Numbered from the stretch's first letter, positions 3,284-45,355 are shown. The stretch: 52,600 nucleotides of DNA from Candidatus Staskawiczbacteria bacterium (GCA_023245145.1 JAHFKW010000002.1:1-52600), one strand, 5' to 3'. The notes: generated from the letters alone by a model not told the origin. Program-made: numbers and translations.

Positions 3284-3325
3284 AGAAAAAAGCCTGCTTC
3301 CTTTTTGGGGTAGCAGGCTTTTGTT
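3284..3325. terminator. Bidirectional intrinsic terminator
   Basis: A-tract, AAAAGCCTGCT..AGCAGGCTTTT, T-tract, between convergent genes. Confidence 0.85.
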
Positions 3326-3963
3326 TTAGCCTCCCAATGCAATGGTTGTGCCATTAGGAGAACTAAACGATGCGGGATTTTTTACGGGTAATTTCCCTCC
3401 AAAAATTGTTAGGAAAAGTGCGCGTTTGCCAGGATCATCTTTATTTGCCTTAAGATAACCCTCAACAATGCCATATCCAACGTCGTCGTAAATGGAATAG
3501 CTGTGCACAGTGTACAGAGGTCCATGCAGTAAATTTTTTATAACATCTTTCTGACTTAGGATGTCTCTTTGGAGCACGGCTGCACCTTTCCAGCGCATAT
3601 TCTTAGCTACGCCATCATCGACCCTCAATACACCGCCCCACATTTCCTTGAGGAGTTGAGGAAGTCTTTCGTTAGCGATTTTTCCGCCTCCTGTGTAATT
3701 TTTTCTTGTTGGCGCCAAGCTTCGTTTGGGTCTTTCTCTCTTTCCTTAAATACCGTAATTTGCCTGATTTTTTTAGGCTCAGTGGTGAGTGAAGTAAGGA
3801 AAGAGTTTGTCGCCATGCCCGCCGGAAAGGCTAATAGAGAAGTCAGAGCAAACACCAGCAGAGTTAGTTTGATACGTTCCCGTGCGATTAGTCGTCCGTT
3901 GTCTTTTTTGGGTTCGTCGATGGTGATTACGTTTCTCTGACTTACATCGGATGATTTTTTCAC
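3326..3963 (-). pseudogene. SD-led accessory gene split into two overlapping frames (3625-3963, 3326-3718)
   Basis: AAAGGAG-7nt-GTG start and N-terminal TM helix; the second frame continues with protein-like sequence but has no own SD. Promoter TTGGCT-18-TAAAAT at 4037-4066. Confidence 0.55.
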
Positions 3964-4085
3964 GGCGAGCTCCTTTGTTAAAGTGCCGGTTGACGCCAGT
4001 TCAATAGATCAAATTTACAATCGCTAAAGTTTAATTATTTTATCATACATTTGAAAAATCAGCCAATTTGTAATAGTATAATCAC

Positions 4086-5105
4086 ATGGCACTATCTATC
4101 GCAATCGTGGGGCTTCCAAACGTTGGTAAGTCCACGTTGTTTAAAACATTAACTAAAAAGGAAGTCTTGATTGCCAATTATCCTTTTGCCACGATTGACC
4201 CGAATGTGGGGGTGGTTTTGGTTCCTGATGAAAGAGTAGATAAGCTGGCTGAATTTTCCATTTCAGAGAAAAAGATTTATGCTACGGTGGAATTTGTGGA
4301 CATTGCCGGGTTGGTAAAAGGCGCCAGTGAAGGCGAGGGGTTGGGTAATAAATTTTTAGCCAATATTCGGGAAACCGATGCTATCGTCTATATTTTACGC
4401 GCCTTTAAAAATGATGACATTATCAACACGCAAAGTGACATTAATCCAATGCGTGACAAAGAAATTTTGGACGTGGAATTGATTTTAAAAGATTTGGAAA
4501 CGCTTCAAAAGTATAAAACCAAAGATGCTAAGGAAACTTCGGCGATAACCAAGGCCGTTAATTTTCTTAAACAACAGAAAGTGTTAGTTGAGCAATCTTG
4601 GAGTGAAGAAGAAAAATCAGTATTAAGAAATTTCCAATTGTTGACTCTCAAGCCAAGATTATATGTGTTAAACGGATCACGGGACGACTTGATAACTTTA
4701 CAACTTGATAACTTGACGAACTATCTTTTGATGAATATTGCGGAAGAATATGATTCAGCGGCGTTTACAAAAGAAGAAAGAATTGGGCTTGGGTTATCGG
4801 CGGAATCGGGGTTAGATATGTTAATTAAAAAATCGTATGAATTATTGGGTTTACAAACCTTTTTAACCACCGGGGAAACGGAAACGCGGGCGTGGACGAT
4901 TCATAAGGGCGACAAAGCTCCGCAGGCGGCAGGCGTAATTCATTCAGATTTTGAACAAAAGTTTGTGAAAGCGGAAGTAATTTTTTGGGAAGATTTGTTG
5001 AAAGTTGGTAACTATGCCAAAGCCCGCGAAACTGGATTAATCCGGACGGAAGGTAAGGAGTATGTGATAAAGGATGGAGATGTGGTTGAGTTTAAGCATG
5101 GGTAA
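4086..5105 (+). CDS. ychF: Redox-regulated ATPase YchF
   Basis: [36 protein letters not shown] domain AAGVIHSDF. Confidence 0.97.
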
Positions 5106-5172
5106 GAGGGTATAAATTTTGTAATAAAAAAATCCCGACGCTTGGTGGTCGGGATCTGGAGGGCTAGTTTTA

Positions 5173-5436
5173 TTATTGATTATCGAACTTTGCCCATTTT
5201 TTGACATTCTTTTTGTGTATTTGGCGTAGTCGTCGCCTTAGCGCGGCGGCTTCCTTGCGGGCTTCGGGTTGGGTTTCATAAGAAGAAGATGATTGCCATT
5301 TACCATTACCATCAAATATGGTAACCCCGAAACTCCAGCCACCTCCAGCCTGCTTCATGGGGCCGGGGTGGACTAAGACGTAGTGAGGTTCGATTCTGCG
5401 AGAAAGAGAATCCTGAACCATAATCGGCTTCAACAT
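5173..5436 (-). CDS. Small accessory protein, SD-led cassette
   Basis: GGAG-7nt-ATG; promoter TTGACA-17-TAGAGT (5485-5513); terminator ATCCCGAC..GTCGGGAT plus U-tract (5125-5155). Confidence 0.75.
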   Translation of the reverse strand: MLKPIMVQDSLSRRIEPHYVLVHPGPMKQAGGGWSFGVTIFDGNGKWQSSSSYETQPEARKEAAALRRRLRQIHKKNVKKWAKFDNQ

Positions 5437-5563
5437 GAATGGTCTCCAAAAAATATTGAGAATGGTGAGTACTGCTCTAATAATACTCTATTATATAATT
5501 CATAATCTGTCAAGTAAAATTTGAAATAAAAAATCCCACGGTGGCGAGTCGTGGGAAACTAGA

Positions 5564-5689
5564 CTAGTAGTGGAACAATCCGGCGCAGGCCATAACATCA
5601 GCAAAGACTTTACACGTCATAACCAGCGGTACCGTGACACAAAAATACTTCCACGCTAATCCAATACTTTCTTCATTGTAGCGATACAT
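5564..5689 (-). CDS. 41-aa accessory peptide (MYRYNEESIGLAWKYFCVTVPLVMTCKVFADVMACAGLFHY), SD-led cassette, not in ORF track
   Basis: AAGGAG-6nt-ATG; promoter TTGACA-17-TACTAT (5732-5760); terminator TCCCACG..CGTGGGA plus U-tract (5528-5556). Confidence 0.65.
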   Translation of the reverse strand: MYRYNEESIGLAWKYFCVTVPLVMTCKVFADVMACAGLFHY

Positions 5690-5761
5690 GATTTGCTCCT
5701 TGATAGAGAGGCAGGTTCAGGTGTTGAGGCTATAGTAGTATGAATCATTAAACTTGTCAAC

Positions 5762-6055
5762 ATGAAATTTGAGATAAAAAACTTACAAAGCAATATTAAT
5801 ATTATTATGCGACAGATTGGTTACCAACCAGCTTACTTCCAAGAGCCTGGGGAATTTAGTGTAGTTAAAAAAATAATGGGAAGTGACTACCCCAGATTTC
5901 ACTTATATATAAAAAATACAGGAAGTGATTTTAGCTTTAATCTTCACCTTGACCAGAAAAAACCTTCGTATGAAGGTGCAACGGGACATAGTGGAGATTA
6001 TGATGGAGAGGTAGTGGAAGGCGAGGCAGAGAGAATTCAGCAGTTATTAAAGTAA
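5762..6055 (+). CDS. Hypothetical protein
   Basis: 97-aa ORF with host-like codon use, YPRFHLY..LHLDQK; family not named. Confidence 0.75.
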   Translation: MKFEIKNLQSNINIIMRQIGYQPAYFQEPGEFSVVKKIMGSDYPRFHLYIKNTGSDFSFNLHLDQKKPSYEGATGHSGDYDGEVVEGEAERIQQLLK

Positions 6056-6099
6056 AAAAAGTGCGCACTTTGGTAGTGCGCTTATAGGAAAAATCACTG

Positions 6100-6318
6100 T
6101 CAAGGATTTATGGGAGTGATGGTCTCTGGATTAACCAGTCGCTCTTCGCTTGGATTTCGATTGTGAAACTTGATCCAATACTGTAGTTCTCCCGAAGCTG
6201 TCTTTGTCCACTCAGTCACTTTAGCTAGATCTCCGTTTCGCAGATCGTTGGGATCCTGAGATATATAAATTACAATCGTTCCAATCTTCAATCTCGTATT
6301 TGGATTTATCCCGTTCAT
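6100..6318 (-). CDS. Small accessory protein (possible SH3-like beta barrel), SD-led cassette
   Basis: AAGGGG before ATG 6318; promoter TTGACA-17-TATAGT (6358-6386); terminator GCGCACT..AGTGCGC plus U-tract (6054-6081). Confidence 0.72.
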   Translation of the reverse strand: MNGINPNTRLKIGTIVIYISQDPNDLRNGDLAKVTEWTKTASGELQYWIKFHNRNPSEERLVNPETITPINP

Positions 6319-6379
6319 GATGATTCCCCTTGTTTGTGAAAGTTGCTGAACAAATAAACTATAGTCTATAAATCTCAAT

Positions 6380-7030
6380 ATGTCAATAAAAATACTCTAC
6401 GAAGACAATCACATTATTGCGGTTGAAAAACCCGCAGGTGTTTTGAGTCAGGGAGACCGGTCGGGGCAAACCAGCATGTTTGGTTTGGTGAAAAAGTATT
6501 TAAAAGAGAAATATAAAAAACCGGGAAATGTGTTTTTGGGAATTGTGCATCGTTTAGATCGGCCGGTTTCTGGGATTTTATTGTTTGCTAAAACCAGCAA
6601 AGGTGCATCAAGATTATCCGAGCAATTCAGAAACAAGACGATTGAAAAAACGTATCACGCGTTGGTAGTTGGAAAACCGCCGAAAAATAGGGGAGTACTG
6701 GTGAATGTGATTGGCAAGGACGAAAAATTATTGAAGGCTAAAGAATATGGTGATGGGAAAGAGGCCGTGTTGCATTACGAATTGGTGAAAAGTAATGGGA
6801 AATATTCTTTACTGAAAATACAAATTCAAGGTGGGCAGTTTCATCAAATTCGGGTGCAACTTTCTTTGGCGGGGATGCCAATTGTGGGGGATGTAAAATA
6901 TAAAGGTGAAGCATGGAGTTTTGGAGAAGCAATTGCATTATGCGCCACGGGAATTTCATTCATACAAGCCACTGTGGATAAACGGGTTGACTTGTCTATT
7001 GCTATTCCATTTGAATTGGGGGATAATTAG
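6380..7030 (+). CDS. RluA-family pseudouridine synthase
   Basis: ILYED, KPAG, HRLD catalytic motif, HQIRVQL, PIVGD. Confidence 0.95.
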   Translation: MSIKILYEDNHIIAVEKPAGVLSQGDRSGQTSMFGLVKKYLKEKYKKPGNVFLGIVHRLDRPVSGILLFAKTSKGASRLSEQFRNKTIEKTYHALVVGKPPKNRGVLVNVIGKDEKLLKAKEYGDGKEAVLHYELVKSNGKYSLLKIQIQGGQFHQIRVQLSLAGMPIVGDVKYKGEAWSFGEAIALCATGISFIQATVDKRVDLSIAIPFELGDN

Positions 7031-7916: not shown

Positions 7917-8948
7917 GGCTAGTAATGATGAATCAAATAAAAACCACAACAAAAAGCGGATAATTCTTTACCCATTTTTTAGGTTTTAGAAACCCGCTGC
8001 CAAGCGGTTTTTCATTTCATCAGCGAACCTTGTCAATTTTACCCTTATTAAAATATGCTCAAAAGGCATATACTTTTATTTGGTAAAGCAAATAAAAATA
8101 AGGTCTCTTAATCCATTTTAAGATGGGTCTTATTGGATTAAGAAAAGGTAACAAAAGCATATTCGCTGATAAATCTTTCACCAGATTTATTAGCATCACA
8201 AGTTCATACGATACATAAAATCTGTATCTATTACTTACGCATACGATCCCGCTTTGCGGGATCATTAAAAAATAGGTTATAAGCGAATGGTGGATGCCTT
8301 GGGATATTACAGTGATGAAAGACGTGGCGTGCCTGCGATAAGCGTCGGGGAGGTGGCTAGCAACCTTTGATCCGGCGATTTCTGAATGGGGAAACCCTAT
8401 TGTGTGAATAACGCAATAATCTGTGCCGTAAGGCATGGAAGCTAACCCACTGAAGTGAAACATCTCAGTAAGTGGAGGAACATAAAACAATGTCTCGCGC
8501 AAGCGAGACGCATTCCCTTAGTAGTGGCGAGCGAAAAGGGAGCAGTCTAAACCAGAATTTATTCTGGGGTTGTAAGGGTTTAACGTCGGGGGCATTACTG
8601 TGCTCTGCACAGAATATTGAAATATTTAAACATTTAAATATTCCGCGCAGGGCGCGGTAATGAATTCCGAGGGAGAACAAAAAGGTAAGTTATTAAAAGA
8701 AGCACCCTGGAAAGGGGCACCATAGAGGGTAATAGTCCCGTACTCTAAAATAATATTACGCTCCTTGTTAAGTTTCTTAAGTACTGTCGGGAATGATAAC
8801 CTGGCAGGAAGCAGGCCGAACTATCGGCCAAGACTAAATATGTAATATCACCGATAGTGAACCAGTACCGTGAGGGAAAGGTGAAAAGTAGGGGGATGAC
8901 CCCGGTGAAATAGAACCTGAAACCATTTGCTTACAAAGAGTCGGAGCG

Positions 8949-9450
8949 GCCACATCACACTGTGTGTGATACGGAATTGTTCTAATTACTCTAATTAACC
9001 TAATTATTCTAATCAAATGCTAAATTACCAAAATTCAAAATAAAAAAACGGCACCAATTTTTGGTCGGTGCCTCGTTGTTGCGATGAGAAAAAGATATTT
9101 TACTTTTTCTCGCGCCTGAAGAATGCGATGTATGTTTCAGTAAGTCCGATAGCTTGACACACTGAAACTAACTCCCAGCCTTCCTGCGCCATTTCATTCG
9201 CTGTATCAACTACCCCATCTTCGATGTCTTCAATTTCATTTGAACCGACGACACCGTAGTCGATAAGCATTTTGCAGTGTTCGTACATGTTTTCCTCCTT
9301 TGAGTAGGGAAACTAACTGGTTATTAATCTATCATATTATAGTTTTAATGTCAAGTTTGAATTTTGGAAATTAGTCATTGGTATTTGATTAGAATAATTA
9401 GAACAATTAGAAATTAGAATAATTTCACATCGCGCTTAGCGTGATGTGGC
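8949..9450 (+). other. 23S rRNA intervening sequence in helix 25
   Basis: About 500 nt between GGAGCG and TGTGACGGCGTGC; ~90-nt imperfect arms (GCCACATCAC/GTGATGTGGC, CTAATT/AATTAG repeats, CCAAAATTCAAA/TTTGAATTTTGG). Confidence 0.9.
9100..9288 (-). CDS. DUF4177-like small protein, SD-led cassette inside 23S IVS
   Basis: NEMAQEGWELVSV..FFRR resembles DUF4177; AAAGGAGG-5nt-ATG; promoter TTGACA-17-TAGATT (9326-9354); terminator GGCACC..GGTGCC plus U-tract (9042-9072). Confidence 0.8.
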   Translation of the reverse strand: MYEHCKMLIDYGVVGSNEIEDIEDGVVDTANEMAQEGWELVSVCQAIGLTETYIAFFRREKK

Positions 9451-11457
9451 TGTGACGGCGTGCTTTTTGCAGAACGAGCCAACGAGTTTATCTATTCGGC
9501 TTGTCTAAGCCCTTACGGGGTGAAGGCGTAGCGAAAGCGAGTGTTAATAGCGCGTTTGCCGAATGTATAAGACCCGAAGCGTGACGAGCTTACCATGTGC
9601 AGGCTGAAGTCTGTAGAAATACGGATGGAGGGCCGAACCCGTGAGTCGTGCAATCCTCTGGGATGACGTGTGGTAAGGAGTGAAAAGCTAATCGAGTTAC
9701 GTAATAGCTGGTTCTTCCCGAAACAGCTTTGGGGCTGGCGTCTGTTAAGATAGTATAGGGGGGTAGAGCACTGAATCGAAACTCTTGCCGCAAGGCAGAT
9801 TTTCGAATCAAACTCCGAATACCCTATGCCGTAAACAGGCAGTTAGACCGTGGGGGCTAAGCTCCATGGTCAAAAGAGTAACAGCTCAGATCATAGTCTA
9901 AGGTCCCTAAATTATATTAAGTGTTATGAAGGAAGTGTTTTGTCCTCGACAGGCAGGAAGTTAGCTTAGAGGTAGCTATCTTTTAAAGAGTGTGTAACAA
10001 CTCACTGTCCAAACTTTGCGGATTTCCGCGAGGAGGGACGAAATGCGCCAAAGATTTCCGGGGCTAAATATAATACCGAAGACATGGACTTATTTTTCCT
10101 TCGGGAAAAATAATTGGTAGGGAAGCGTTCCTATCGCAGTGAAGCAGGAGAGTAATCGACTGTGGAGCGTTAGGAAGTGAGAATGTTGGCCTGAGTAACC
10201 GCAATAGGGGTGAAAGCCCCCTACACCGAAAGTCCAAGGTTTCCTTGGCAATGGTATTCAACCAAGGGTTAGTCGGTCCTAAGGCGTATCCGAAAGGAGT
10301 AACTGATGGACAATGGGTTAATATCCCCATACTTGGATGCATTTCCATGACGTTGCGCATTGTAGTAATTTGGGTGGATAACTGGATTTCACATTCTGAC
10401 TTTTAAGAGTTAAGAAGAGTTGGCAGAAGTGTCAGCAATCCAAGTGAGCGCAGTGCCTAGAAAAGGCGTCGTGGGCGTGGTGCATTCAAACCGTACCGCA
10501 AACCGACACAGGTGGACAAGCGTAAGTATGCTAAGGTGAACGGGTGAGACCTCTTTAAGGAACTAGGCAAACAAGTGGACGTAAGTTCGCAATATGTCCT
10601 GCCCTTTTTCGCAAGAAAAAGGGCCGCAGCTACTGTCTCTCTACCGACTGTTTATCAAAAACACAGCTCCCTGCTAACTCGCAAGAGGATGTATAGGGGG
10701 TGAGGCCTGACCAGTGCTGGAATGTTAAGTTTGGGAGTCCAAGCCGCAAGGTTTGGGCCCACTGAATGAAGCACCAGTGAACGTCGGCGATAACTATAAT
10801 CGTCCAAAGGTAGCGTAATCCCTTGCCGGGTAAGTTCCGGCCCGCATGAATGGCTTAACGAGTGGAGAACTGTCTCAAAGAGGCGCCCGGTGAAAATGCA
10901 ATACCAGTGAAGATGCTGGTTACCTGCGGCTAGACGGAAAGACCCCGGAAGCTTTACTGTAGTTAGATATTGAATTTTAATTTTTGATACGTAGCGTAGT
11001 GGTGAGCCTTTGAAGCGGAATTTTCGGATTCCGTGGAGGCGCCGATGAAACAGCCATTTTTAAAAGTTAATATTCTAATCCACTTAACTGTGGTCACAGT
11101 GTTTAATGGGCAGTTTAAATGGGGCATTTGCCTCCTAAAGAGTAATGGAGGCGTTTAAAGGTTGGTTAGGTTCGGATGGAAATCGAACCGATAGGGCAAA
11201 GCCATACACCAGCTTTACTGCAAGACGGCTATGTCGCGCAGTTGCGAAAGCAGAACTTAGTGAACCGACGTGATTTCATAGGAAACACGAAGATCATCAG
11301 CCAAAAGCTACTCCGGGGATAACAGGCTAGTAGAGCCCGAGCGTCCATAGCGACGGCTCTGTTCGGCACCTCGATGTCGGCTCAACTTATCCTGGGGGTG
11401 GAGCAGCTCCCAAGGGTCGTGCTGTTCGCACGTTAAAAAGTTACGTGAGCTGGGTTC

Positions 11458-11941: not shown

Positions 11942-12007
11942 AAGAACTTAATTGTAAAAAAAGAAACCGATCAGTCCGTGATCGGTTTTTGGTTGGCTAA
12001 TGACGGA

Positions 12008-12202
12008 TTAACGGATAGCTTTTCGAATGGCGAGCGATAATTTTTCGCCAGCCTCTGCCATTCTATGCATCCATCGTGTCTCTGCGCCAACTCCATCACC
12101 ACCTTTCTCAAGTTCTTTTTTGTAAAATCGCGCTGTCTTTCTTTTGCTCTGGGTATAGCAGCCTAGAGCTTGGCGAATTAATTTCATCTGGTTGCTGTTC
12201 AT
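12008..12202 (-). CDS. Small helical accessory protein, SD-led cassette
   Basis: AAAGGAG-5nt-ATG; promoter TTGACA-17-TAGAGT (12244-12272); terminator AAACCGATCA..TGATCGGTTT shared with the rRNA unit. Confidence 0.72.
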   Translation of the reverse strand: MNSNQMKLIRQALGCYTQSKRKTARFYKKELEKGGDGVGAETRWMHRMAEAGEKLSLAIRKAIR

Positions 12203-12318
12203 GTTAACTCCTTTGGTTCTCGGTGAGGGATATAACTATCGAAACTCTACCAAATTAAACTTTATTTGTCAAAGTTGTGGCAAGCTTATTATTTATGATA
12301 CAGTACATTATTGCATCT

Positions 12319-22287: not shown

Positions 22288-22821
22288 ATGAAATTGTCGA
22301 TTACCGATCAGTTTCTCTATGATCTACTGGTGTTGATAGACGAAGGTGCTTATACTGCCGGAAAGTTGTTTGGTCCTCGACGTAGTATTATTAGAGCGTT
22401 GCCATATCATCGTAATCCGGTTCTTGAAAAATATCGAAAAGAAAAAAGCGCTAAGGCTCTCAGAAAAATTATCTATTATCTTAAAACCAATAATTATATT
22501 AAGGTGAAGAGCTTGGAGGGTAATAAGGGAATTATGTTAACATCCGGGGGAATAGCTAAAGCTCTGCGGACGAGCATGGTCATTGAAGCAAAACAAAAGC
22601 GTAAAGACGGAAAATGGATTATGATTATTTTCGATGTGCCTCAAAAATATCAAAAATCCAGAAACATTTTAAAAAGTATATTATTAAATTCTGGTTATAA
22701 GCTATTGCAACAAAGTGTATGGGTTAATCCCTACGATGTCTACGAAAAAACGGTGGCACTATTGCAACACCATGATCTGGAACGATACGTAAAAATATTT
22801 ATCATTGAGGCTATTCGATAG
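22288..22821 (+). CDS. PaaX-like protein (winged HTH plus Cas2/VapD-like domain)
   Basis: LTSGG wing, DGKWIMIIFDVP..R..L..GYKLLQQSVWVNPY. Confidence 0.8.
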   Translation: MKLSITDQFLYDLLVLIDEGAYTAGKLFGPRRSIIRALPYHRNPVLEKYRKEKSAKALRKIIYYLKTNNYIKVKSLEGNKGIMLTSGGIAKALRTSMVIEAKQKRKDGKWIMIIFDVPQKYQKSRNILKSILLNSGYKLLQQSVWVNPYDVYEKTVALLQHHDLERYVKIFIIEAIR

Positions 22822-22873: not shown

Positions 22874-22971
22874 TTAATTTTCGGAGGATTAGGGGGGGGT
22901 AAAAGTTCGCAAGAAAAAAGCCCGCGGTTGTCAATCGCGAGACTTTTTGGAGTGGTTTTACTGCACTCCTT

Positions 22972-23205
22972 CTAATGGCGCGAAGAGTGGCCGACTACCT
23001 CGCGCTTACCGCATTTCCGACAATGTAATATCCATCTATTGTCGGAAGTGATGGCGGGTTGTCCATTTTCCATCAAGTTTTCGAACTGATGGCCGCCGCA
23101 CCGATATTCACTGTACCAGTCGGCGATGCTCTCGCCCCAAAATGCCCAGATTCCCGTGGCGAATATCAGTCCCAAAACGATCAGTAATGCGATGACGTAG
23201 ATCAT
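22972..23205 (-). CDS. Small TM plus Cys/His (zinc-ribbon-like) accessory protein, SD-led cassette
   Basis: AGGAG-5nt-ATG; promoter TTGACA-18-TATAGT (23263-23292); hairpin plus U-tract 22911-22948; CGGH..CRKC. Confidence 0.78.
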   Translation of the reverse strand: MIYVIALLIVLGLIFATGIWAFWGESIADWYSEYRCGGHQFENLMENGQPAITSDNRWILHCRKCGKREVVGHSSRH

Positions 23206-23341
23206 TTTTGCTCCTATAATACGTAGGAATGGCTGGAAATCAGCGCTTTTACCTACACCCTAACTATAGCATACACTAAGAGTTCTTGTCAAGTAGTGCC
23301 AGGGGTTTGGAAAAGGCGGTGAAAACTGGTAAAATAACAAG

Positions 23342-35765: not shown

Positions 35766-36128
35766 ATGAATGAAGAACAAATCAAACAAAAACTAACGCC
35801 CGAGCAATATAAAGTTTTGCGGGAAAAGGGGACGGAGGCGCCTTTTACGGGAAAGTATGTGCACAAGACCGTTGATGGAAATTATGTTTGTATGGTTTGC
35901 CAAAATACGCTTTTTTCGTCTGATGCGCAGTTTGATAGTGGCACGGGCTGGCCCAGTTTTGACAAAGCCATTACTGGCGCGGTAGAATATAAACAGGAAG
36001 TTGATGGAAGAACGGAAATCACTTGCACCAAATGCAAAAGTCATTTGGGACATGTATTTGATGACGGGCCGACTGACACTGGTAAACGGTTTTGCGTAAA
36101 CTCCGTTTGTCTGGATTTAAAGAAGTAG
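35766..36128 (+). CDS. msrB: Peptide-methionine (R)-S-oxide reductase
   Basis: GTEAPF, SGTGWPSF, HLGHVFDDGP, RFCVNS. Confidence 0.97.
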   Translation: MNEEQIKQKLTPEQYKVLREKGTEAPFTGKYVHKTVDGNYVCMVCQNTLFSSDAQFDSGTGWPSFDKAITGAVEYKQEVDGRTEITCTKCKSHLGHVFDDGPTDTGKRFCVNSVCLDLKK

Positions 36129-36148
36129 TTCTTTTAAGGAGTACCTTC

Positions 36149-36340
36149 ATGGCTACCTGTACCCGAGGAGCGAGGAAAAAAGTACTCGGACCAGTTGTGT
36201 TCGACCGCGATTGGGACGCTGCACTCACCGCAGCTCATGTGATGTGGAAAAACAGAAATCCTGGAGAAAAGTTTTCTCTCACGATTGAGATAGAGCCACC
36301 CAAGCAAGATGACGGAAGGAGCAGCATCCCTCCCGATTAA
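36149..36340 (+). CDS. Small accessory protein, SD-led
   Basis: AAGGAG-7nt-ATG; long terminator hairpin plus T-tract 36349-36410; no clear own promoter. Confidence 0.65.
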   Translation: MATCTRGARKKVLGPVVFDRDWDAALTAAHVMWKNRNPGEKFSLTIEIEPPKQDDGRSSIPPD

Positions 36341-36419
36341 ACCACCTAGCGGGTTGTGCCTTTGCTAACTAGGGAGTACAGCAGAGAGGACACGACCCGC
36401 TCTTTTTTTATTCACAGGA

Positions 36420-36457
36420 TTAGCACTCTTGACATGAGTTTGCTAATTTATTAAGAT
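36420..36457 (+). promoter_or_regulatory. CIRCE operator overlapping the sigma70 promoter of hrcA
   Basis: TTAGCACTC-N9-GTTTGCTAA (2 mismatches to CIRCE), with TTGACA-17-TAAGAT. Confidence 0.9.
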
Positions 36458-36463
36458 AGAAAT

Positions 36464-36898
36464 ATGATTTCAGACAGACAAGAAAAAATATTGGAATTAT
36501 TGATTAAAGAATACATTGATTCGGCTCGACCCGTCAGTTCCGACATGCTCAAAAAAAGACTACACCTGGATATTTCGCCTGCCACGATTCGCAATGAATT
36601 ACAAGAATTAATGGAAGCGGGGTACGTGGCCCAGCCTCACACTTCCGCCGGACGGGTACCAACCGAAAAGGGCTATCGGTTTTTCGTAACGGTTACCATC
36701 ACCCCGCAAAATCATCAACTGCCTAATTTTATTCATCGTGAAATCCAAGAAGCGCGCGAAAACATCAAAAAAGAACTCATGCTGGCGGAGGATATGGTTA
36801 GGTCTTTACGCGGAAAACTGGCTTTACTGGATGGGGTCCGGAATTTAACCGAGCAGGAAACATTATATGAAATATTAACTATTTTAGGCTCATTATAA
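36464..36898 (+). CDS. hrcA: Short HrcA heat-shock repressor (DNA-binding domain)
   Basis: PVSS, SPATIRNE, QPHTSAGRVPTEKGYR. Confidence 0.9.
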   Translation: MISDRQEKILELLIKEYIDSARPVSSDMLKKRLHLDISPATIRNELQELMEAGYVAQPHTSAGRVPTEKGYRFFVTVTITPQNHQLPNFIHREIQEARENIKKELMLAEDMVRSLRGKLALLDGVRNLTEQETLYEILTILGSL

Positions 36899-37785: not shown

Positions 37786-39672
37786 ATGTCAAAAATATTA
37801 GGAATTGATTTAGGAACAACCAATAGCGCGATGGCGATTGTGGAAAATGGTGAGCCAAAAATAATAGAGAATAAAGAGGGGGCACGGACTACACCTTCCA
37901 TTGTGGCGGTTTCAAAAACTGGTGAAAGGGTAGTGGGAGTGTTGGCCAAACGGCAATCAGTAACCAACCCAACTAATACGATTTTTTCGGTGAAGCGTTT
38001 GATTGGGCGAAAGTTTTCTGAAGCGGAGGTGCAAAAAGACAAAAAGAATTTACCCTATGAAATTCGCGAATCGCAAGATGGCGGAGTAGATGTAAAAATG
38101 GGAGACAAATGGTTAAATCCAGCGGAAATTTCGGCGATGATTTTACAAAAGTTAAAAGCTGATGCAGAAGCAAAATTGGGCGAGCCAGTAACTGAAGCTA
38201 TTATTACCGTGCCAGCTTACTTTGACGACAGCCAGAGAAAAGCCACCAAAATTGCCGGAGAAATTGCTGGCTTTGATGTAAAGCGCGTGATTAACGAACC
38301 AACCGCCGCGGCTTTGGCCTATGGATTAAACAAAAAGAAAGATGAGAAAATTGTGGTGTACGACTTTGGCGGCGGAACTTTTGATATTTCCATTTTGGAT
38401 GTGGGCGCCGACACCGTGGAAGTAAAAGCCACTGGCGGAGATACCCATCTGGGCGGAGATGATTTGGACCAAAAAGTGATGGATTGGATTGTGACTGCTT
38501 TCAAAAAAGATAATGGCATTGATTTGGCCAAAGATAATTTGGCATTGCAACGCATTAAAGAGGCGGCTGAAAAAGCCAAAATTGAACTGTCTAGCAGCCA
38601 AGAAACAGAAATTAACTTGCCGTTTATTACCAGCGGCGCTGATGGGCCAAAACATTTGCTGTACAAATTAAGCCGAGCGCAGTTTGAGCAAATGGTGGGG
38701 GATTACATTGATAAAAGTATTGAGTTGGTGAAAAAAACTTTGAAAGAAGCGGGTTTGGAGGCCAACCAAATTAATGAAGTGGTTTTGGTGGGCGGGCAAA
38801 CCAGAATGCCAAAAATTATTGACGAAGTAAAAAAACTGTTTGGCAAAGAACCCAATAAAGAAGTCAATCCAGATGAAGTGGTGGCGATTGGAGCGGCCAC
38901 GCAGGGCGGAATTATGCAGGGCAACGTGCGGGATGTATTGCTTTTGGATGTGACGCCACTTTCCCTGGGAATTGAAACCATGGGCGGTGTCAGCACCGTT
39001 TTAATTAGCAAAAACACCACCGTGCCAACGGCTAAAACGCAAGTGTTCTCAACCGCTGCTGACTCACAACCAAGCGTGGAAATTCATGTACTTCAGGGAG
39101 AAAGGCCAATGGCACAAGACAACAAAACGCTGGGTAGGTTTATGTTAGATGGCATTCCGGCGGCGCCACGTGGAACTCCGCAAATTGAAGTAAGTTTTGA
39201 CATTGACGCTAATGGAATTTTAAATGTGTCAGCTAAAGATAAAGCTACTAACAAAACGCAGTCTATTAAAATTGAAGGTTCAAGCGGACTTTCAAAAGAA
39301 GAAGTGGAAAAAATGAAAAAAGATGCTGAAATTCACGCCACCGAAGATAAGAAAAAACAAGAAGCTATTGAAACCAAAAACTTGGCGGATGCCATGGTTT
39401 ACACGGCAGAGAAAACGCTTAAAGATGCAGGTGATAAAGTTGCCGCCGATGCAAAAAAAGAAGCTGAAACTAAAATTTCAGCGTTGAAAGAAACTCAAAA
39501 GACTGATAACATTGAGGAAATTAAGGCAAAGACCAAAGATCTTTCTGAAACGATGCAGAAAATCGGCGCGGAGCTTTATAAACAGCAACCACAACCCGGA
39601 ACACCTGGTACCGAAGAAAAGCCAAAGGATGAACCGAAGACAGAGGAAGGCCAATTCGAAGAAAAAAAATAG
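37786..39672 (+). CDS. dnaK: Chaperone DnaK
   Basis: [34 protein letters not shown]. Confidence 0.99.
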
Positions 39673-39733
39673 GCGCCGGGTTGAATTGAATCAACTCGCG
39701 GCGCTTCAGAAAATTAGAGCCGATAAAGATTAC

Positions 39734-39979
39734 CTAAGCTTCTAATGATCGCACCTTATTGGCAACAAACCCAGCCAATTGCACAGAATCCATTGCGCTC
39801 GGAATCGCCACTATCTTGACTAATCGGATTCCGCACGAGGCACGGGTCACATTAGCTGTGCCGTTTCCGTCCCCATCTGGCTTGTAGTCGGTAACTGCGC
39901 CACAAGCGACGGCCTTGTCTAGTTCGGCTCTGGAAATTTCACAGACAATGACACCACGGTATTGAACGCACAAGATCAT
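39734..39979 (-). CDS. Small accessory protein, SD-led cassette (slot copy 1)
   Basis: GGAGG-8nt-ATG; weak promoter TTGATT-17-TATTTT (40028-40056); terminator 39662-39704. Confidence 0.68.
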   Translation of the reverse strand: MILCVQYRGVIVCEISRAELDKAVACGAVTDYKPDGDGNGTANVTRASCGIRLVKIVAIPSAMDSVQLAGFVANKVRSLEA

Positions 39980-40062
39980 TTAAGAATCCTCCAATGTCAC
40001 AATGGGTAGGTGGCTAGAACTTACTCTAAAATATCATAAATTCAAAAAGTAATCAATAGATC

Positions 40063-40121
40063 ATGGACTATTACTAAACATTAGGCATTACAAAGCAAGC
40101 CAGCCGATAAATATCAAAAAA
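40063..40121 (+). pseudogene. Remnant of dnaJ 5' end
   Basis: Reads MDYY*TLGITKQAS versus dnaJ MDYYEVLGITKQAS. Confidence 0.85.
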
Positions 40122-40123
40122 CA

Positions 40124-40510
40124 GTGAAAAAAGATTTCAAAAATTGGGGCGGACAAAAAGCCAACATTCACAACGAAAAGCAAAGGCCATTTTTTCATGA
40201 GAGGGAAGTGTGGTTTTGCACTCTCGGAGAGAATATCGGCTTTGAGCAAGATGGCAGCGGTGGTAAATTCTTACGGCCAGCGGTCATTTTGAAAAAATTC
40301 AACAATGAGGTAGTATGGATATTGCCACTGACTCGTAATCCAAAAGCAGGTAAATACTATTTTAGCGTTTTGCTGAATGGTAAAGCAAGCACCATTATTT
40401 TATCTCAAATTCGTCTGATTGATACCAAGAGGTTGCAGTACAAAATAGGAATGGTTAACGAGAATGAATTCGGTAAACTAAAAGAAGCGCTTGTGGCGCT
40501 CCTAAAATAA
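40124..40510 (+). CDS. PemK/MazF-family toxin, no protein antitoxin nearby
   Basis: EVWFC.LGENIGFEQDG, RPAVIL, PLT, SQIRLIDTKRL. Confidence 0.88.
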   Translation: MKKDFKNWGGQKANIHNEKQRPFFHEREVWFCTLGENIGFEQDGSGGKFLRPAVILKKFNNEVVWILPLTRNPKAGKYYFSVLLNGKASTIILSQIRLIDTKRLQYKIGMVNENEFGKLKEALVALLK

Positions 40511-40519
40511 GTGGTAGAA

Positions 40520-40596
40520 ATAGTTACTCCCGCTTGCGCGGGAGAGGGCCGAAGCCGTTTGTACGTTAAGTATAGCAGAATAAAGACCCGTGTCAA
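40520..40596 (-). ncRNA. Putative small structured RNA transcribed antisense toward pemK, with its promoter
   Basis: TTGACA-16-TATACT (40569-40596), then minus-strand hairpins with UUCG and GCAA tetraloops. Confidence 0.45.
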
Positions 40597-40601
40597 TAGA
40601 C

Positions 40602-40667
40602 GCAGAAGAAGGCCAATTTGAGGAAAAAAAATAGGCGCCGAAAGTTGATTGAACAACTCGCGACGCC
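40602..40667 (+). repeat. Diverged duplicate of dnaK 3' end plus terminator
   Basis: Encodes [10 protein letters not shown] versus dna[11 protein letters not shown], followed by a homologous GGCGCCG..GTTGA..CAACTCGCG.CGC hairpin. Confidence 0.92.
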
Positions 40668-40674
40668 AATAGAA

Positions 40675-40863
40675 CTATTTTTTTGATGTCTTGCGGGGGG
40701 GAGCTTCAATTCGAACAGATTCGAATTTGCCTCCACTCTGTGTGCACATGCGATATTGAAGAAGACTGCAGAGTTGCCGAAGGAATTCTTGATCTTTTTT
40801 GTTCCTTGGAACCAACAAAATCGTTGGGGTTATAATGTCCTCTGTTTCGAGAACGCAATTCAT
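40675..40863 (-). CDS. Small accessory protein, SD-led cassette (slot copy 2)
   Basis: AAAAGGAG-6nt-ATG; promoter TTGCAA-17-TATAGT (40908-40936); terminator 40624-40667. Confidence 0.7.
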   Translation of the reverse strand: MNCVLETEDIITPTILLVPRNKKDQEFLRQLCSLLQYRMCTQSGGKFESVRIEAPPRKTSKK

Positions 40864-40940
40864 GATTTTCTCCTTTTACGGAAGGTTGAATGTGCAATAC
40901 CTGAATAACTATATCATAAATATAATAAATTTGCAATAGC

Positions 40941-42017
40941 ATGGACTACTATGAAGTTTTAGGCATCACAAAACAAGCCAGCGCGGACGAAATCAAAAAA
41001 GCTTTTCATAAGCTGGCTCATAAGTATCACCCTGATAAAGGCGGGGATGAGAAAAAGTTTAAAGAGATAAATGAAGCTTATCAGGTTTTAAGTAACGCCG
41101 AAAAGCGCCAACAGTATGATCAATTTGGCAGAACGTTTGATCAAAATGGCGGAGGAGCTGGAGATTTTAATTGGGCTTGGCAGAATCAGGGAGCAAGCGG
41201 TTTTGATCCGGAAGACTTGGGTGATATTTTTGAGAACTTTTTTCAATTTGGAGGTGGGGGACGCAGAGCTAGCAAAAAAGATATTAAAAAGGGTAAAGAT
41301 ATTCAAATTGACATTGAAATTGCACTGGAAGAAACTCTGCAACCCATTCACAAAAAGATTTCTCTGAAAAAAGAAATTACGTGTACACGATGCGTAGGCA
41401 AAGGCGCCGAGCCCGGAACAAAAGTTAACGAATGTTTTTCATGTCGGGGAAGTGGCCAGGTGCAGGAAGTTAAGCGCACCATTTTGGGCAGTTACACGAC
41501 ATTTACCACTTGTCCGGAATGTAAGGGCGAAGGGAATAGACCCGAAAAAGTTTGCAATGTGTGTCATGGCGAAGGCCGATTAAAAGGCCATGAGGACATT
41601 GAATTTACCATTCCCGCTGGCATTGATAATAATCAGGCTATTGAAATTGATGGCAGAGGTGACGCTGGTAAGAAAAATGGCAAAGCCGGGAATTTGTATG
41701 TGCGAATTTTTGTAAAAAAGCACCCTGTGTTTTTGCGCAAAGGTGATGATTTATATTTATCTCGTGAAATTAATTATTCGGACGCTATTTTGGGTGGCAA
41801 CATGGAAATGCCAACACTAGAAAATACGCCGATTATCGTTAAAATTCCGGCTGGCACCGAATCGGGAAAAATTTTACGCATCAGTGAAAAAGGAATCCCG
41901 CATTATGGCAGTTACGGCAGAGGCAGTATTTATGTGGAATTGATTATCAAAACGCCCAAAAAAGTAAGTAAAAGACAAAAAGAATTACTTGACCAATTGC
42001 GCCAAGAAGGGTTATAA
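40941..42017 (+). CDS. dnaJ: Chaperone DnaJ
   Basis: J domain HPD, G/F region, four CxxCxGxG repeats. Confidence 0.98.
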   Translation: MDYYEVLGITKQASADEIKKAFHKLAHKYHPDKGGDEKKFKEINEAYQVLSNAEKRQQYDQFGRTFDQNGGGAGDFNWAWQNQGASGFDPEDLGDIFENFFQFGGGGRRASKKDIKKGKDIQIDIEIALEETLQPIHKKISLKKEITCTRCVGKGAEPGTKVNECFSCRGSGQVQEVKRTILGSYTTFTTCPECKGEGNRPEKVCNVCHGEGRLKGHEDIEFTIPAGIDNNQAIEIDGRGDAGKKNGKAGNLYVRIFVKKHPVFLRKGDDLYLSREINYSDAILGGNMEMPTLENTPIIVKIPAGTESGKILRISEKGIPHYGSYGRGSIYVELIIKTPKKVSKRQKELLDQLRQEGL

Positions 42018-42111: not shown

Positions 42112-42147
42112 CAGGGTAAAAAAAGTCTTCAACTTAAGGAGTTGGCC

Positions 42148-42567
42148 ATGGTTGCGCAGAGCATGAAAAAATTGGCAGATCTTTTTGTCATAGACTTGGC
42201 AGGCTGGGAAATTGGCTATTGCCATTTCCTGGAACTGGAACACTCGTGTATGGGGACCTTCCCCGCGATTAGGCTCAGCGACGGAGCCCCAATGTTGGTG
42301 GCGGAAAAAGGTTTACTAAAACTGGTTTGGGAAGCTGTTGGGCAGTGTCAAGCCAGAACATCAAGTTTTTTGGGTCTGTTTAACCGCCGACTCGGCCTCG
42401 TCTTTAATCTGGAGGCACCCGGATCCAACAAGGGCAATTCCGTTTCGCTCAAACTTTTCGGGAGGGATGAGATTCAAATCCTGGTCAATACACCCAATGG
42501 CTTAGGATGGGCACCGGGACTTCTGGGCGGCAGCGAAGGTATCGCATCTCCCCTAAGATTCGACTAA
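42148..42567 (+). CDS. Accessory hypothetical protein, SD-led
   Basis: AAGGAG-6nt-ATG just after tRNA-Lys; terminator 42603-42650. Confidence 0.65.
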   Translation: MVAQSMKKLADLFVIDLAGWEIGYCHFLELEHSCMGTFPAIRLSDGAPMLVAEKGLLKLVWEAVGQCQARTSSFLGLFNRRLGLVFNLEAPGSNKGNSVSLKLFGRDEIQILVNTPNGLGWAPGLLGGSEGIASPLRFD

Positions 42568-42710
42568 CTCGCACTTTAACGGCCAAGCTCTAAAGATCGA
42601 CCAAGCCCCTTAATGCAAAAGGAATTGCAGCAAGGGGTTTTTATTTTTTGGTAGTTTTTTAGTGAATAATGTGTGTTGCACATAGACCAGCTCCATGGTA
42701 CGATTAATAC

Positions 42711-43397: not shown

Positions 43398-43461
43398 CTC
43401 AGCTGGCTAGAGCGTTCGCATGGCATGCGAAAGGTCGTCGGTTCGAATCCGATCGGGTCCA
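43388..43461 (+). tRNA. tRNA-Ala(GGC)
   Basis: GGGCCCG/CGGGTCC with G3:U70, TTCGC-ATGGCAT-GCGAA, TTCGAAT. Confidence 0.94.
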
Positions 43462-43520
43462 CATTGACAAATCCTGTTTACGCGGTAGTATGTAGTATCA
43501 ATAACCTAACTCAAAAAACC

Positions 43521-44561
43521 ATGAAAAAAGCCTATCTTTTGCTAGCAGTGATTATTGGCATCTTAACTGTTTCTTCAGTTGCACAAGCTTACGCGGGGAA
43601 CTGTTACTCATACGCTTCAAAAAAGTGTGTGAGCAACATTTCATACTGGTACGATTCTTGCGGAAACATCCAGGCAGTCAATCAAAACTGCAACACTTCA
43701 AACCAAATCTGTAGCAATGGCACTTGTGTTGGCGAAAGTACCGTAAATCCTCCTGTTCAAACTTACATCCAAAACTACCGCACCGCCTGCTATAATAATA
43801 ACATTTTCTGGTACGACTCAAATGGAATTACGCAAAACATGCAAAAGAGTTGCTCTGATGGCAACTCTTGCACCACCGACACTTGTACTAGCACCGCCTG
43901 TAAAAACACCTTAAAGTGCGATGGTTCAACTTGTGGTATTAATTCTGCAGACTACATAACCTACTGCACTGGCAACATCAATACTGGAACTGGTGTCACT
44001 ACCCAGAGCACTATCACCAATGGCAACCAGGCCGTGGTCACAGGAAGTTTTGCCGTTTCTATGTTCGTCAAAAAAGAATCTGATCCAGATTGGTCAAAAT
44101 CGGTAACTACAGTTAACGGAGAAAAACTTACCTTTTTAATAATTTTCAAAAACATCTCCAGCACGCCGGCTGACAACACCACTCTTCAGGCTAACGTAAC
44201 CAATGGCATTACCTACGCCGGAAACTTAAAAATTGATAACACCACTTCAGCGGGGAATATTATTTCAGGAGTCAATATAGGACAACTTAGCGCCCAGACT
44301 TCAAAAGTAGTTAGTTTTTCGGGTACTGTCCAAAGTCAAAATCAACAAACCATCCAGGCCAGCTCCAATGTATATTCGGGCAACATGCATGACTCTGATT
44401 ATGTAACAGTGAATGTGTTAGCCTCTTCAAACGCCACGGCATCAGTTTCGGGCAGTGGGTTTGTCAACTTTGTGAAAAAGTGGTACCTCTGGTTAATTGT
44501 AATCATTGTCCTGATTGCGTTGTTTATAATCATTTTCAGAAGATTATCAACGAACGCGTAA
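43521..44561 (+). CDS. Cys-rich surface protein, related to 26971-29205
   Basis: Signal peptide, C..C....YWYDSCG..C..C repeats, DUF11-like domain, C-terminal TM. Confidence 0.85.
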   Translation: MKKAYLLLAVIIGILTVSSVAQAYAGNCYSYASKKCVSNISYWYDSCGNIQAVNQNCNTSNQICSNGTCVGESTVNPPVQTYIQNYRTACYNNNIFWYDSNGITQNMQKSCSDGNSCTTDTCTSTACKNTLKCDGSTCGINSADYITYCTGNINTGTGVTTQSTITNGNQAVVTGSFAVSMFVKKESDPDWSKSVTTVNGEKLTFLIIFKNISSTPADNTTLQANVTNGITYAGNLKIDNTTSAGNIISGVNIGQLSAQTSKVVSFSGTVQSQNQQTIQASSNVYSGNMHDSDYVTVNVLASSNATASVSGSGFVNFVKKWYLWLIVIIVLIALFIIIFRRLSTNA

Positions 44562-44661
44562 CAGTTTAAACAGAATCACCCGAATTGTAATTATATAATT
44601 TTGTGTTATACTATAATCGTGTTAGCTTTTACTAGTATCTAACTCCGGGGAGGCTAGTTTC

Positions 44662-45252
44662 ATGTTGAGTAAAAATACGAAAGTTACTCTTGTGACAATC
44701 GTGAAACCATGGGATAGCCTTGTGGCTTTCCCTCTCGGCGCTGGAGAGATGGGAATCATGGCCGGCGCCGAAGATCGAACGGGATTGGTACTTAGGCTAC
44801 TGTCTTTGGTTCTGGATTTCAATTCGCAATGGGTGCCTGTATTCATGAGGGTAGATGTGAGCCCCCTGAAGCCGACTTTTTTTGCATCGCTGATCATTGG
44901 CCTTGAAGAGGGCAATTTGTTCTCAAACGATTGCAAAAGTTTTAAAGAATATGTCACAAAGCAAGCTTTTGACCCGATATCTGGTTATCGGATGGCGGTC
45001 AAAGGTAGAGCAGATTTGAATATCATAGTCAGTGACAACACCAACGCGTTGGCTAATGTCTTCAAGATTTTTGATAGGCATGGTGCACACCCGTGCCAGG
45101 CCGAGTCTTCCTTAAGTGTGGATGTCAATTCCGGTAAAACCTTCATTGACCTGAAGGTGAGCTTGGAACTATTCGAACAAGCGAAAGCCACTCTTGCGGA
45201 AATGCTCAACGAACTGCGAGCAGACGGATGTCGTTTGGTGACAACAGAATAA
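44662..45252 (+). CDS. Accessory protein, possible tandem ACT-like domains, SD-led cassette
   Basis: GGAGG-8nt-ATG; promoter TTGTAA-16-TATACT (44585-44612); terminator 45280-45313; AEDRTGLV and VSDNTNALANVF resemble ACT beta1-alpha1. Confidence 0.7.
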   Translation: MLSKNTKVTLVTIVKPWDSLVAFPLGAGEMGIMAGAEDRTGLVLRLLSLVLDFNSQWVPVFMRVDVSPLKPTFFASLIIGLEEGNLFSNDCKSFKEYVTKQAFDPISGYRMAVKGRADLNIIVSDNTNALANVFKIFDRHGAHPCQAESSLSVDVNSGKTFIDLKVSLELFEQAKATLAEMLNELRADGCRLVTTE

Positions 45253-45355
45253 GTAAAAGGACTGATTGTCCATTGATCAAACCTCGAAACGGATATTCGA
45301 GGTTATTTTTTTATGTTGTCAAAAGTGTAAGTTTTTGATAAAGTAAAGTAATTTC

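Follow-up and report, generated by a model that had tools for sequence, protein, structure and literature searches.

Shine-Dalgarno-led orphan genes in a bacterial genome whose 16S rRNA lacks an anti-Shine-Dalgarno tail

Introduction

Why would a bacterium whose 16S ribosomal RNA (rRNA) lacks the sequence that reads the Shine-Dalgarno (SD) motif carry genes that are led by this motif? The question is raised by the opening 52.6 kb of contig 9 in a genome of 626 kb (G000; 14 contigs, 99% complete, ~40% G+C). In this stretch of 52,600 nucleotides (nt), hereafter the window, 12 short open reading frames (ORFs) form small cassettes with an SD-type motif directly ahead of the start codon. An earlier note, made from the sequence alone, had described them as a distinct gene class and offered three explanations: that the units are meant for a host cell, that a second, anti-SD-bearing ribosome exists, or that whole transcription units are captured from SD-using donors. 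Lineages without an anti-SD are a natural experiment on what the SD motif is worth without its reader.

The excerpted text of Tsurumaki et al. 2022 (PMC9297842) states that the anti-SD motif was detected in just 48% of Parcubacteria, that its absence overlaps with the group lacking uL1, and that SD helices are probably not formed in the anti-SD-less members. The paradox is real, but this loss, which makes up one half of it, is already published for Parcubacteria. The impression in the earlier note that no described system accounts for the cassettes thus needs to be divided: it does not apply to anti-SD loss, and it does apply to SD-led orphan genes in anti-SD-less genomes, which were not found in the literature searched.

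Results

The only 16S rRNA gene of the assembly is cut by the contig start and interrupted by a group I intron-like insert. Its 3' end in the window is GGATCATTTTTTT, with the terminus GTGGATCATTTTTTTAAAAG, and CCTCC is not present; the complementary CCUCC is missing from the rRNA, whose tail is GGAUCAUUUUUUU, which bears out the statement that this 16S rRNA cannot read an SD. The tail GGATCATTTTTTTAAA recurs in 13 of the 13 genus genomes with that 16S end assembled, and six of six other families of the order with an assembled 16S end lack CCTCC and have differing A/T-rich tails. Because of this distribution, the loss of the anti-SD appears to be old and order-wide and to predate the diversification of the order. 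The uL1 gene was looked for in the genome and not found.

rRNA genes are often missing from metagenome-assembled genomes, and a second ribosome with an anti-SD, or a 16S end that is an assembly error, would dissolve the paradox. A search of the 99% complete assembly for GATCACCTCC, however, gave no occurrence, and the closest complete congener (G007), assembled as a single contig, has exactly one 16S rRNA gene with the identical tail. An assembly error is opposed by the recurrence of that tail throughout the genus and by the published loss of the anti-SD (PMC9297842, as excerpted). We regard both possibilities as having a negligible probability; as far as the DNA shows, the second-ribosome explanation of the earlier note is refuted, and neither a second 16S rRNA gene with CCTCC nor a misassembled end was found. 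A downstream CUCU in the 16S flank was considered as a replacement anti-SD and dropped, as it is not conserved in G007 and others. The seven U's that follow GGAUCA (window 1974-1990) are identical in all 13 genus genomes (loci L058-L070 represent the 12 others), and core leaders are A-rich (45-58% A at -12 to -3). Pairing of the U-tail with such leaders may be imagined, as an idea only.

All 12 cassette starts are preceded, at a distance of 5-9 nt, by AAGGAG, AGGAG, GGAGG, GGAG or AAGGGG, in agreement with the initial description. Six cassettes (5436-, 5689-, 6318-, 9288-, 12202- and 23205-) have an exact TTGACA, a spacer of 17-18 nt and a TAnnnT box, as had also been described; the promoter scores of the others are lower (9/12 in three cassettes, 8/12 in two and 7/12 in 42148+, which lies directly 3' of tRNA-Lys). 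A terminator hairpin had been attributed to each cassette. We found a hairpin followed by a T-run in 11 of the 12, and none at 3963-, where one was looked for. Nine cassettes are antisense to their neighbours, just as counted before. Orientation was rejected as a feature of the class, with 14 antisense and 19 sense cases genome-wide (p = 0.49). The placement of one cassette is corrected: the ORF at 9288- is located inside the span of the 23S rRNA gene, within a 504-nt insertion.

The SD signal separates non-conserved from conserved genes throughout the genome. Gene calling with a codon log-odds score of our own and a greedy choice, with the first ATG as start, gave 572 genes, of which 451 count as conserved, that is, have a tblastn match in one congener, G007. 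GGAG occurs at -18 to -4 in 4.9% of the conserved genes compared with 5.7% in a shifted control, and a five-mer SD precedes 12 of 449 conserved genes, which is background level. The absence of an SD from the housekeeping starts that had been inspected in the window is thereby extended to the genome, and SD use by the bulk of genes, housekeeping genes included, is not seen. Five-mer SDs precede 16 of 119 non-conserved genes and 28 of 193 non-conserved ORFs in gaps (gap ORFs; p = 8e-8 against the conserved genes, Fisher test), and the genome-wide separation of orphans from core that had been proposed is confirmed. With the start set blindly at the first ATG, GGAG begins at -14 to -9 in 34 of the 193 gap ORFs and in 9 of the 449 conserved genes; its positional profile has a peak at -11/-10 in the former and is flat in the latter. 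Among all 256 four-mers, GGAG ranks first in non-gene space for being followed 4-10 nt later by an ATG and an ORF of at least 30 amino acids (aa), with success at 72 of 533 occurrences (13.5%) against 4.1% overall; AGGA ranks second and GAGG third. SD-led non-conserved genes number ~63, roughly a tenth of the gene set. By-eye reading indicates that chance SD-like motifs before conserved genes are mostly not retained in G007.

The two groups of starts also differ in context. Core starts follow an A-rich stretch and have T at -1 (50%). SD-led leaders are C-rich and then T-rich ahead of the motif, and C stands at -1 in 54% of 41 SD-led starts versus 22% of 358 core starts, with T at -2 in 44% of the SD-led ones. 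C at -1 and T at -2 constitute a second signature of the SD-led class or of its donors. Many operon-first core genes have a -10 box whose end lies ~7 nt ahead of the ATG, as is characteristic of leaderless mRNAs. Boxes of this kind were noted before ychF (4051-4086), greA (2161-2195) and the gene at 36464 (36429-36464), and TAnAAT-like boxes occur in 32 of 358 core genes, with peaks at -12 and -14.

The first codon position is G in 31.8% of cases in the 42 strictest SD-led orphans, in 32.7% in core genes and in 23.0% in 151 SD-less gap ORFs. Since first-position G matches the core and exceeds the SD-less gap ORFs, the SD-led ORFs are, as a group, real coding sequences; individually the evidence is thin. 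Their composition is unlike that of the resident genome. Among the non-conserved genes of G000, G+C at third codon positions (GC3) is 51.2% in SD-positive (n = 21) and 37.9% in SD-negative genes (n = 100), and overall G+C is 47.7% and 39.4%, respectively (p = 5e-6, test on overall G+C); conserved genes show no G+C difference by SD status. Leftover intergenic DNA has 37.9% G+C, and the codon score of SD-led genes is near 0. Of three other genomes analyzed from the order, two have the SD pattern (G007 and G028; not G036). In G007, the counts of SD-preceded starts are 14/447 for conserved genes, 23/157 for non-conserved genes and 29/148 for gap ORFs, with a peak at -12 to -10 and a GC3 of 57.1% vs 40.7% (p = 6e-6). 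In G028, which belongs to another family and of which ~90% was examined, an SD precedes 18 of 333 genes with a homologue in G000 and 34 of 278 without, with a peak at -13 to -8 and a GC3 of 54.9% vs 44.1% (p = 3e-6). Across the three genomes, SD-led genes thus have a GC3 of 51-57% as compared to 38-44%.

Synteny between the genome and G007 is almost perfect, and the cassettes are indels within it. Where the window has the slots 6055-6380 and 22212-23342, the gap in G007 measures 0-3 nt, with just 3 nt between the genes that flank cassette 4, and the slot at 39672-40941 ranges across the genus, by hand-derived gaps, from ~30-140 nt in three genomes to 1.4-2.1 kb in four. In G007 this last slot holds another SD-led ORF (67 aa with hydrophobic stretches, AAAAGGA), and the ychF slot holds a small antisense SD-led ORF of 118 aa (AAGGAAAG) whose sequence is unrelated to that in G000.

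The description of the cassettes as mutually unrelated stands for the ORFs, but not for two of their locations, as a single intergenic slot is duplicated in tandem and its copies contain cassettes 9 and 10 (39979- and 40863-). The duplication repeats the final 38 nt of the upstream gene with its terminator at 92% identity (39641-39678 and 40603-40640) and, at 76-81%, the downstream gene's promoter region and initial 43 nt (40031-40104 and 40911-40982); the two antisense ORFs share no similarity despite their duplicated flanks. For the PemK/MazF-like toxin ORF between the copies, 2 of 24 congeners have related DNA elsewhere in their genomes. This arrangement suggests that a relative's DNA with a different filling was integrated by homologous recombination through a single crossover. 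A similar extra copy of the start of the downstream gene seems to be present in G019. Read contigs from one groundwater study (four DNA runs) are identical to the window across cassettes 8-12, and in one contig, from a related strain, 39635-40989 is missing. These contigs provided no population variation on which selection could be tested, and the datasets listed as carrying the window stretch were the four DNA runs, with no RNA dataset among them. Shared mobile-element ends or a flanking repeat family around the cassettes were not found; shared flanks are limited to the local tandem duplication. No repeat family of the integron type flanks the cassettes either, and no search was aimed at an integrase.

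Relatives of the SD-led proteins are missing from the collections searched. The nine cassettes in the set tested have no tblastn match in G007 and no paralogue; cassettes 1-4 have no DNA match in 40 relatives, and cassettes 8-12 none in 24 congeners among the matches listed (44 weaker ones were not listed). All three proteins searched (cassettes 2, 4 and 12) are singletons among 5.8 billion proteins, the 196-aa protein of cassette 12 also by exhaustive HMMER search of 1.8 billion representatives, and the 62-aa protein of cassette 5 was not found in 300 other genomes of the class. Pfam searches with 39 SD-led proteins gave only weak or short matches (DUF4177, DUF4406, NUDIX, zinc ribbons, helix-turn-helix (HTH)), the DUF4177 match of cassette 5 being below the cut-off, and PHROGs gave one short match for 20 proteins. 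Phage records, viral contigs and genome contigs yielded no match to SD-led proteins, and close donor homologues in SD-using taxa, which had been named as a sign of simple transfer relics, were found in none of the protein, phage, viral and genome collections. The AlphaFold2 model of the 72-aa protein of cassette 4 is a small beta-barrel of moderate confidence (predicted local distance difference test (pLDDT) 72.7) with weak Tudor/SH3-like matches (E > 0.1). Other models scored lower, with a pLDDT of 56.5 for the 62-aa protein and ESM (Atlas) values of 0.33 for the 139-aa protein of cassette 11 and 0.49 for a 361-aa protein. Folding evidence from these predictions is weak for single proteins, and the coding signal applies to the group only. 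The proposal of a distinct gene class is upheld: the SD-led genes differ from core genes in conservation, G+C and GC3, codon score, start context and absence of families.

The csrA gene is itself SD-led. The genome encodes CsrA (contig 8, 66214-66366; 92 bits, over the cut-off); the gene occurs in 21 of 23 further genomes of the genus, and 16 other families of the order lack it. It has a GC3 of 0.67-0.76 compared with 0.38 for the genome. A GGA is located 1-10 nt before the start in 23 of 23 csrA copies from 21 genomes, and GGAG, GAGG or AGGA lies within -17 to -5 in 21 of the 23. Most copies have a second, upstream GGA, which is in a hairpin in those traced by eye (G000, G004 and G017), and the bases between the GGA motifs vary among copies. 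As the leader motif is kept in all 23 copies, GGA leaders can be selected without an anti-SD, and the SD-like motif of the csrA leader appears, from this conservation, to be subject to selection in a genus without an anti-SD. The simplest reason would be that CsrA binds its own leader, a putative interaction. csrA comes in two sequence types in the genus, with both in tandem in G013 and G015; the lineage is presumably devoid of flagella.

Before the 23S-5S rRNA pair, the window contains 6.3 kb of protein genes; it has four tRNA genes, and its 23S rRNA gene is ~560 nt too long. Together with the interrupted 16S rRNA gene and the missing uL1 and anti-SD, these features are in keeping with the candidate phyla radiation, probably Parcubacteria. 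The 504-nt insertion in the 23S rRNA gene is absent from the 23S rRNA gene of G007. G007 has its own insertion of ~512 nt near the 3' end (552389-552901, opposite 11464/11465), which is absent from the window. Comparison of the two species indicates that rRNA insertions turn over within the genus. Long inverted repeats made up of TTCTAATT/AATTAGAA units flank both the 16S (575-1245) and the 23S (8948-9451) insertion, the former contains a group I intron-like RNA (676-1144), and a third palindrome of this kind, without an insert, lies on contig 6 (5236-5373). These elements may represent one mobile stem with different cargo. A family of ~70-nt palindromic repeats with seven intergenic copies is not associated with the cassettes.

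PaaX-like genes have four paralogues in G000 and none in G007, and their starts are of the native type. Each copy adjoins an SD-led small ORF; three of these ORFs begin with a membrane-helix-like stretch and are convergent to the PaaX-like gene. The pairs may be two-gene modules. A tRNA-Ala(UGC) gene on the minus strand (2674-2745) lies between the 16S and 23S rRNA genes and is overlapped by a plus-strand ORF of 201 aa (2672-3277), of which only 26 residues have a match in G007 and which is probably not real. Coordinates are compiled in Table 1.

Table 1. Cassettes and other features of the genome (window positions unless a contig is named)
Feature	Position	Strand	Promoter, leader and start	Product, terminator and context
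Cassette 1	3625..3976	-	weak promoter (8-9/12); AAGGAG, 7 nt, GTG	112-aa ORF; no terminator found; no Pfam/PHROG family
Cassette 2	5130..5513	-	TTGACA-17-TAGAGT; GGAG, ATG	87-aa ORF; hairpin + T7; singleton in 5.8 billion proteins
Cassette 3	5535..5760	-	TTGACA-17-TACTAT; AAGGAG, ATG	41-aa ORF; terminator
Cassette 4	6063..6386	-	TTGACA-17-TATAGT; AAGGGGA, ATG	72-aa ORF; GCGCACT hairpin + T7; singleton
Cassette 5	9050..9354	-	TTGACA-17-TAGATT; AAGGAGG, ATG	62-aa ORF; terminator; antisense within 23S insertion
Cassette 6	11964..12272	-	TTGACA-17-TAGAGT; AAGGAG, ATG	64-aa ORF; terminator; between 5S and mreC
Cassette 7	22915..23292	-	TTGACA-18-TATAGT; AGGAG, ATG	77-aa membrane + zinc-ribbon ORF; terminator; convergent with PaaX-like gene
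Cassette 8	36073..36412	+	CTGACA-18-TAAACT; AAGGAG, ATG	63-aa ORF; terminator
Cassette 9	39655..40056	-	GGAGGA, ATG	81-aa ORF, GC 51%; shares the bidirectional terminator of the upstream gene
Cassette 10	40605..40936	-	TTGCAA-17-TATAGT; AAGGAG, ATG	62-aa ORF; terminator, a 92% copy of that at 39641-39678
Cassette 11	42135..42650	+	no own promoter; AAGGAG within CAACT/AGTTG hairpin, ATG	139-aa ORF; terminator; behind tRNA-Lys
Cassette 12	44585..45312	+	TTGTAA-16-TATACT; GGGGAGG, ATG	196-aa ORF; hairpin + T7; singleton
16S rRNA 3' end	1933..1981	+		helix 45, GGATCA, then TTTTTTT where CCTCCTT is expected
23S intervening sequence	8948..9451	+		504-nt insertion at ~model position 583; long stem of AATTAGAA repeats
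PaaX-like gene (Cas2-like middle domain)	22288..22821	+	native-type A/T-rich start	in 1.1-kb insertion relative to G007
PemK/MazF-like toxin ORF	40124..40510	+	native-type A-rich start	between the copies of the duplicated slot
PaaX-like paralogues	contig 14: 46333-46851, 9585-10100; contig 8: 89543-90070
~70-nt repeats	contig 8: 80558-80631, 81331-81404; contig 13: 64547-64629; contig 14: 66888-66963, 81256-81334; contig 9: 87271-87344, 113102-113174

Discussion

We lean towards the view that the SD-led genes are a flexible, foreign-derived pool that keeps leaders of the donor type. The cassettes would then be part of the flexible gene content of a bacterium from the candidate phyla radiation, probably a Parcubacterium, in which species-specific, foreign-looking orphan genes occupy the limited permissive space that separates conserved, syntenic genes and, in one case, an rRNA intervening sequence. 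Their SD-type leaders would stem from a gene pool shaped by SD-reading ribosomes; at a guess, this unsampled donor pool could be phage or other mobile DNA of neighbouring organisms. The resident ribosome, which has been without a CCUCC tail since before the order diversified, cannot pair with such leaders. Native starts are leaderless or follow an A-rich stretch, and the cassettes, if translated at all, would presumably use the same SD-independent routes. We infer the foreign origin, its direction, and that the motif is not read as an SD. The explanation of the earlier note that fits best is hence the capture of units from SD-using donors, with the reservations that no donor was found and that the units are not always whole.

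Several observations weigh against a foreign-derived pool. Transfer from sampled bacteria should leave relatives, and the searches produced no donor, no vehicle, no relatives elsewhere and no shared flanking repeats. A useless SD should decay if cassettes recombine within a genus that lacks the anti-SD. Cassettes 9 and 10 use the bidirectional terminator and the A/T-rich promoter region of their neighbours and not imported ones. Neither a high GC3 nor an SD leader proves youth, as csrA, an older gene present in most congeners, combines a GC3 of 0.67-0.76 with a kept GGAGGA leader. A syntenic 163-aa gene likewise keeps AAAGGAC, C at -1 and a GC3 of 0.61 in both G000 and G007, and its third-position identity of 65% between the two, compared with a core mean of 53%, corresponds to an about core-like divergence. 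Finally, the SD pattern is missing from G036, a genome of a third family with 27% G+C, in which GGAG ranks 29th.

It is conceivable, albeit unlikely, that GGA(G) is a working signal whose reader is not the 16S tail but another factor, CsrA being the most concrete candidate, and that the SD-led genes are a regulon, for instance of foreign genes repressed in translation, whose motif is selected. The presence of csrA in this genus and its absence from the other families of the order are in line with this, as are the kept GGA of its own leader, mostly with the second upstream GGA, the resemblance of the cassette leaders to the csrA leader (C-rich, T-run, GGAGG, 6-8 nt, ATG) and an enrichment that is strongest in the two csrA-bearing genomes. 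However, G028 lacks csrA and has the same G+C-rich, SD-led class. GGA is followed by G in 32 of 53 leaders, which is SD-like, and the selected consensus of CsrA has U at this position. A second GGA at -60 to -18 is found in 24% of SD-positive versus 42% of SD-negative leaders, hence no excess, and GGA falls into a predicted hairpin loop in 7 of 63 leaders compared with 6.8 +/- 2.4 in shuffled sequences. The two CsrA-specific features sought in the cassette leaders, an excess of second sites and presentation in a loop, were thus both not found; multiple GGAs with a loop are a property of the csrA leader. In a rather doubtful extension of this idea, the GGA(G) leader would not be a fossil but the badge of a second selected regime, under which a G+C-rich set of accessory genes, ~10% of the genome, is recognized without the 16S tail by another factor. 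In this genus, the lineage-specific CsrA could be this factor. Native leaders rarely carry the motif, and CsrA would therefore act as a gatekeeper that silences foreign mRNAs translationally, in the manner of H-NS.

The cassettes might alternatively be resident, vertically inherited, fast-evolving small genes in slots that are always occupied, with an SD-like leader that is inherited and selected. The ychF and 39672-40941 slots of G007 do hold small antisense ORFs with AAGGA-type motifs, terminators and unrelated sequences, and with synonymous sites near saturation, weakly constrained sequence would be unalignable anyway. We consider this improbable, as the two slots of 0-3 nt in G007 are empty and a third shrinks to ~30-140 nt in three congeners (gaps derived by hand), and as flanks with 76-92% identity around ORFs without similarity in the duplicated slot speak for replacement and not divergence. 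The products also differ in kind (soluble proteins of 81 and 62 aa as opposed to the 67-aa protein with hydrophobic stretches), and a G+C content above mutational equilibrium, as represented by intergenic DNA, is unexpected for fast-evolving, weakly constrained native sequence. Even further from being credible is the proposal of the earlier note that the units are made for expression in the host cell of a presumed epibiont, where ribosomes would read the SD. It draws only on the mismatch itself, i.e., canonical SDs together with terminators and strong promoters of the sigma-70 type in a cell that has no anti-SD, and it is left unsupported: no link to a transfer or secretion system was seen, the cassette promoters match native ones in type, species of a single genus have entirely different sets, and several products look like the cell's own (putative membrane peptides next to a PaaX-like regulator, a zinc ribbon and an HTH protein).

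In three genomes belonging to two families, the motif sets a flexible, foreign-looking tenth of the genes cleanly apart from the core. If it is a relic, as in a foreign-derived pool, it is a ready marker of recent gene gain in candidate-phyla-radiation genomes and would imply an extensive unsampled donor pool and frequent uptake of DNA by these tiny cells. Should the motif be selected, for which the csrA leader provides a precedent, an SD-like signal has a different reader, which would be new for translation control and for the handling of foreign genes by streamlined symbionts. Either way, gene callers are warned, because ribosome-binding-site models trained on such genomes mix two classes.

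Comparison with known systems

The Parcubacteria subgroup in the excerpted text of Tsurumaki et al. (PMC9297842) resembles the present genome in that the 16S rRNA has no CCUCC and uL1 is missing; unlike here, SD-bearing genes in such anti-SD-less genomes are not described in that text. The ingredients of our case, namely anti-SD loss, foreign orphans, CsrA leaders and rRNA intervening sequences, are known; their combination was not found in the literature searched. In Bacteroidetes, Jha et al. are said to have reported in 2021 that the SD is generally unused and that a few SD-bearing genes are kept for regulation. Both systems share SD-independent initiation, A-rich leaders and SD-like motifs in a special minority of genes, but Bacteroidetes keep and sequester their anti-SD and their SD genes are conserved ribosomal ones, whereas in our genome the anti-SD is deleted and the SD genes are orphans and csrA. 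The two-GGA layout of the csrA leader is the classical autoregulatory one of E. coli, and CsrA sites that overlap SD sequences are known from E. coli and B. subtilis. The csrA leader of this genus likewise has two GGA sites, one at the SD position; in contrast to these model organisms, CsrA operates here in a cell without an anti-SD, and the cassettes are devoid of the two-site and loop features.

Intervening sequences of 23S rRNA in helix 25, some with an ORF, occur in Salmonella, Leptospira and Coxiella. The ~500-nt insertion in the window is located in the same, tolerated region of the 23S rRNA, has a long terminal stem and varies between close relatives, but its ORF differs in being antisense, with its own promoter, SD-like motif and terminator, and in matching no intervening-sequence protein family; no sense-strand ORF for such a protein is present. 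Phage 'morons', attributed to Hendrix and colleagues, are reportedly autonomous promoter-gene-terminator units between conserved genes. Unlike morons, the cassettes reside in a cellular core genome and not in a prophage, and neither donor nor vehicle was found. They depart from acquired orphan genes in carrying a ribosome-binding signal without a reader in the recipient, and they are richer in G+C than their host, whereas foreign genes are usually A+T-richer. What they have in common with morons and acquired orphans is that they are self-contained, absent from relatives, atypical in composition, without families, and inserted between syntenic genes.

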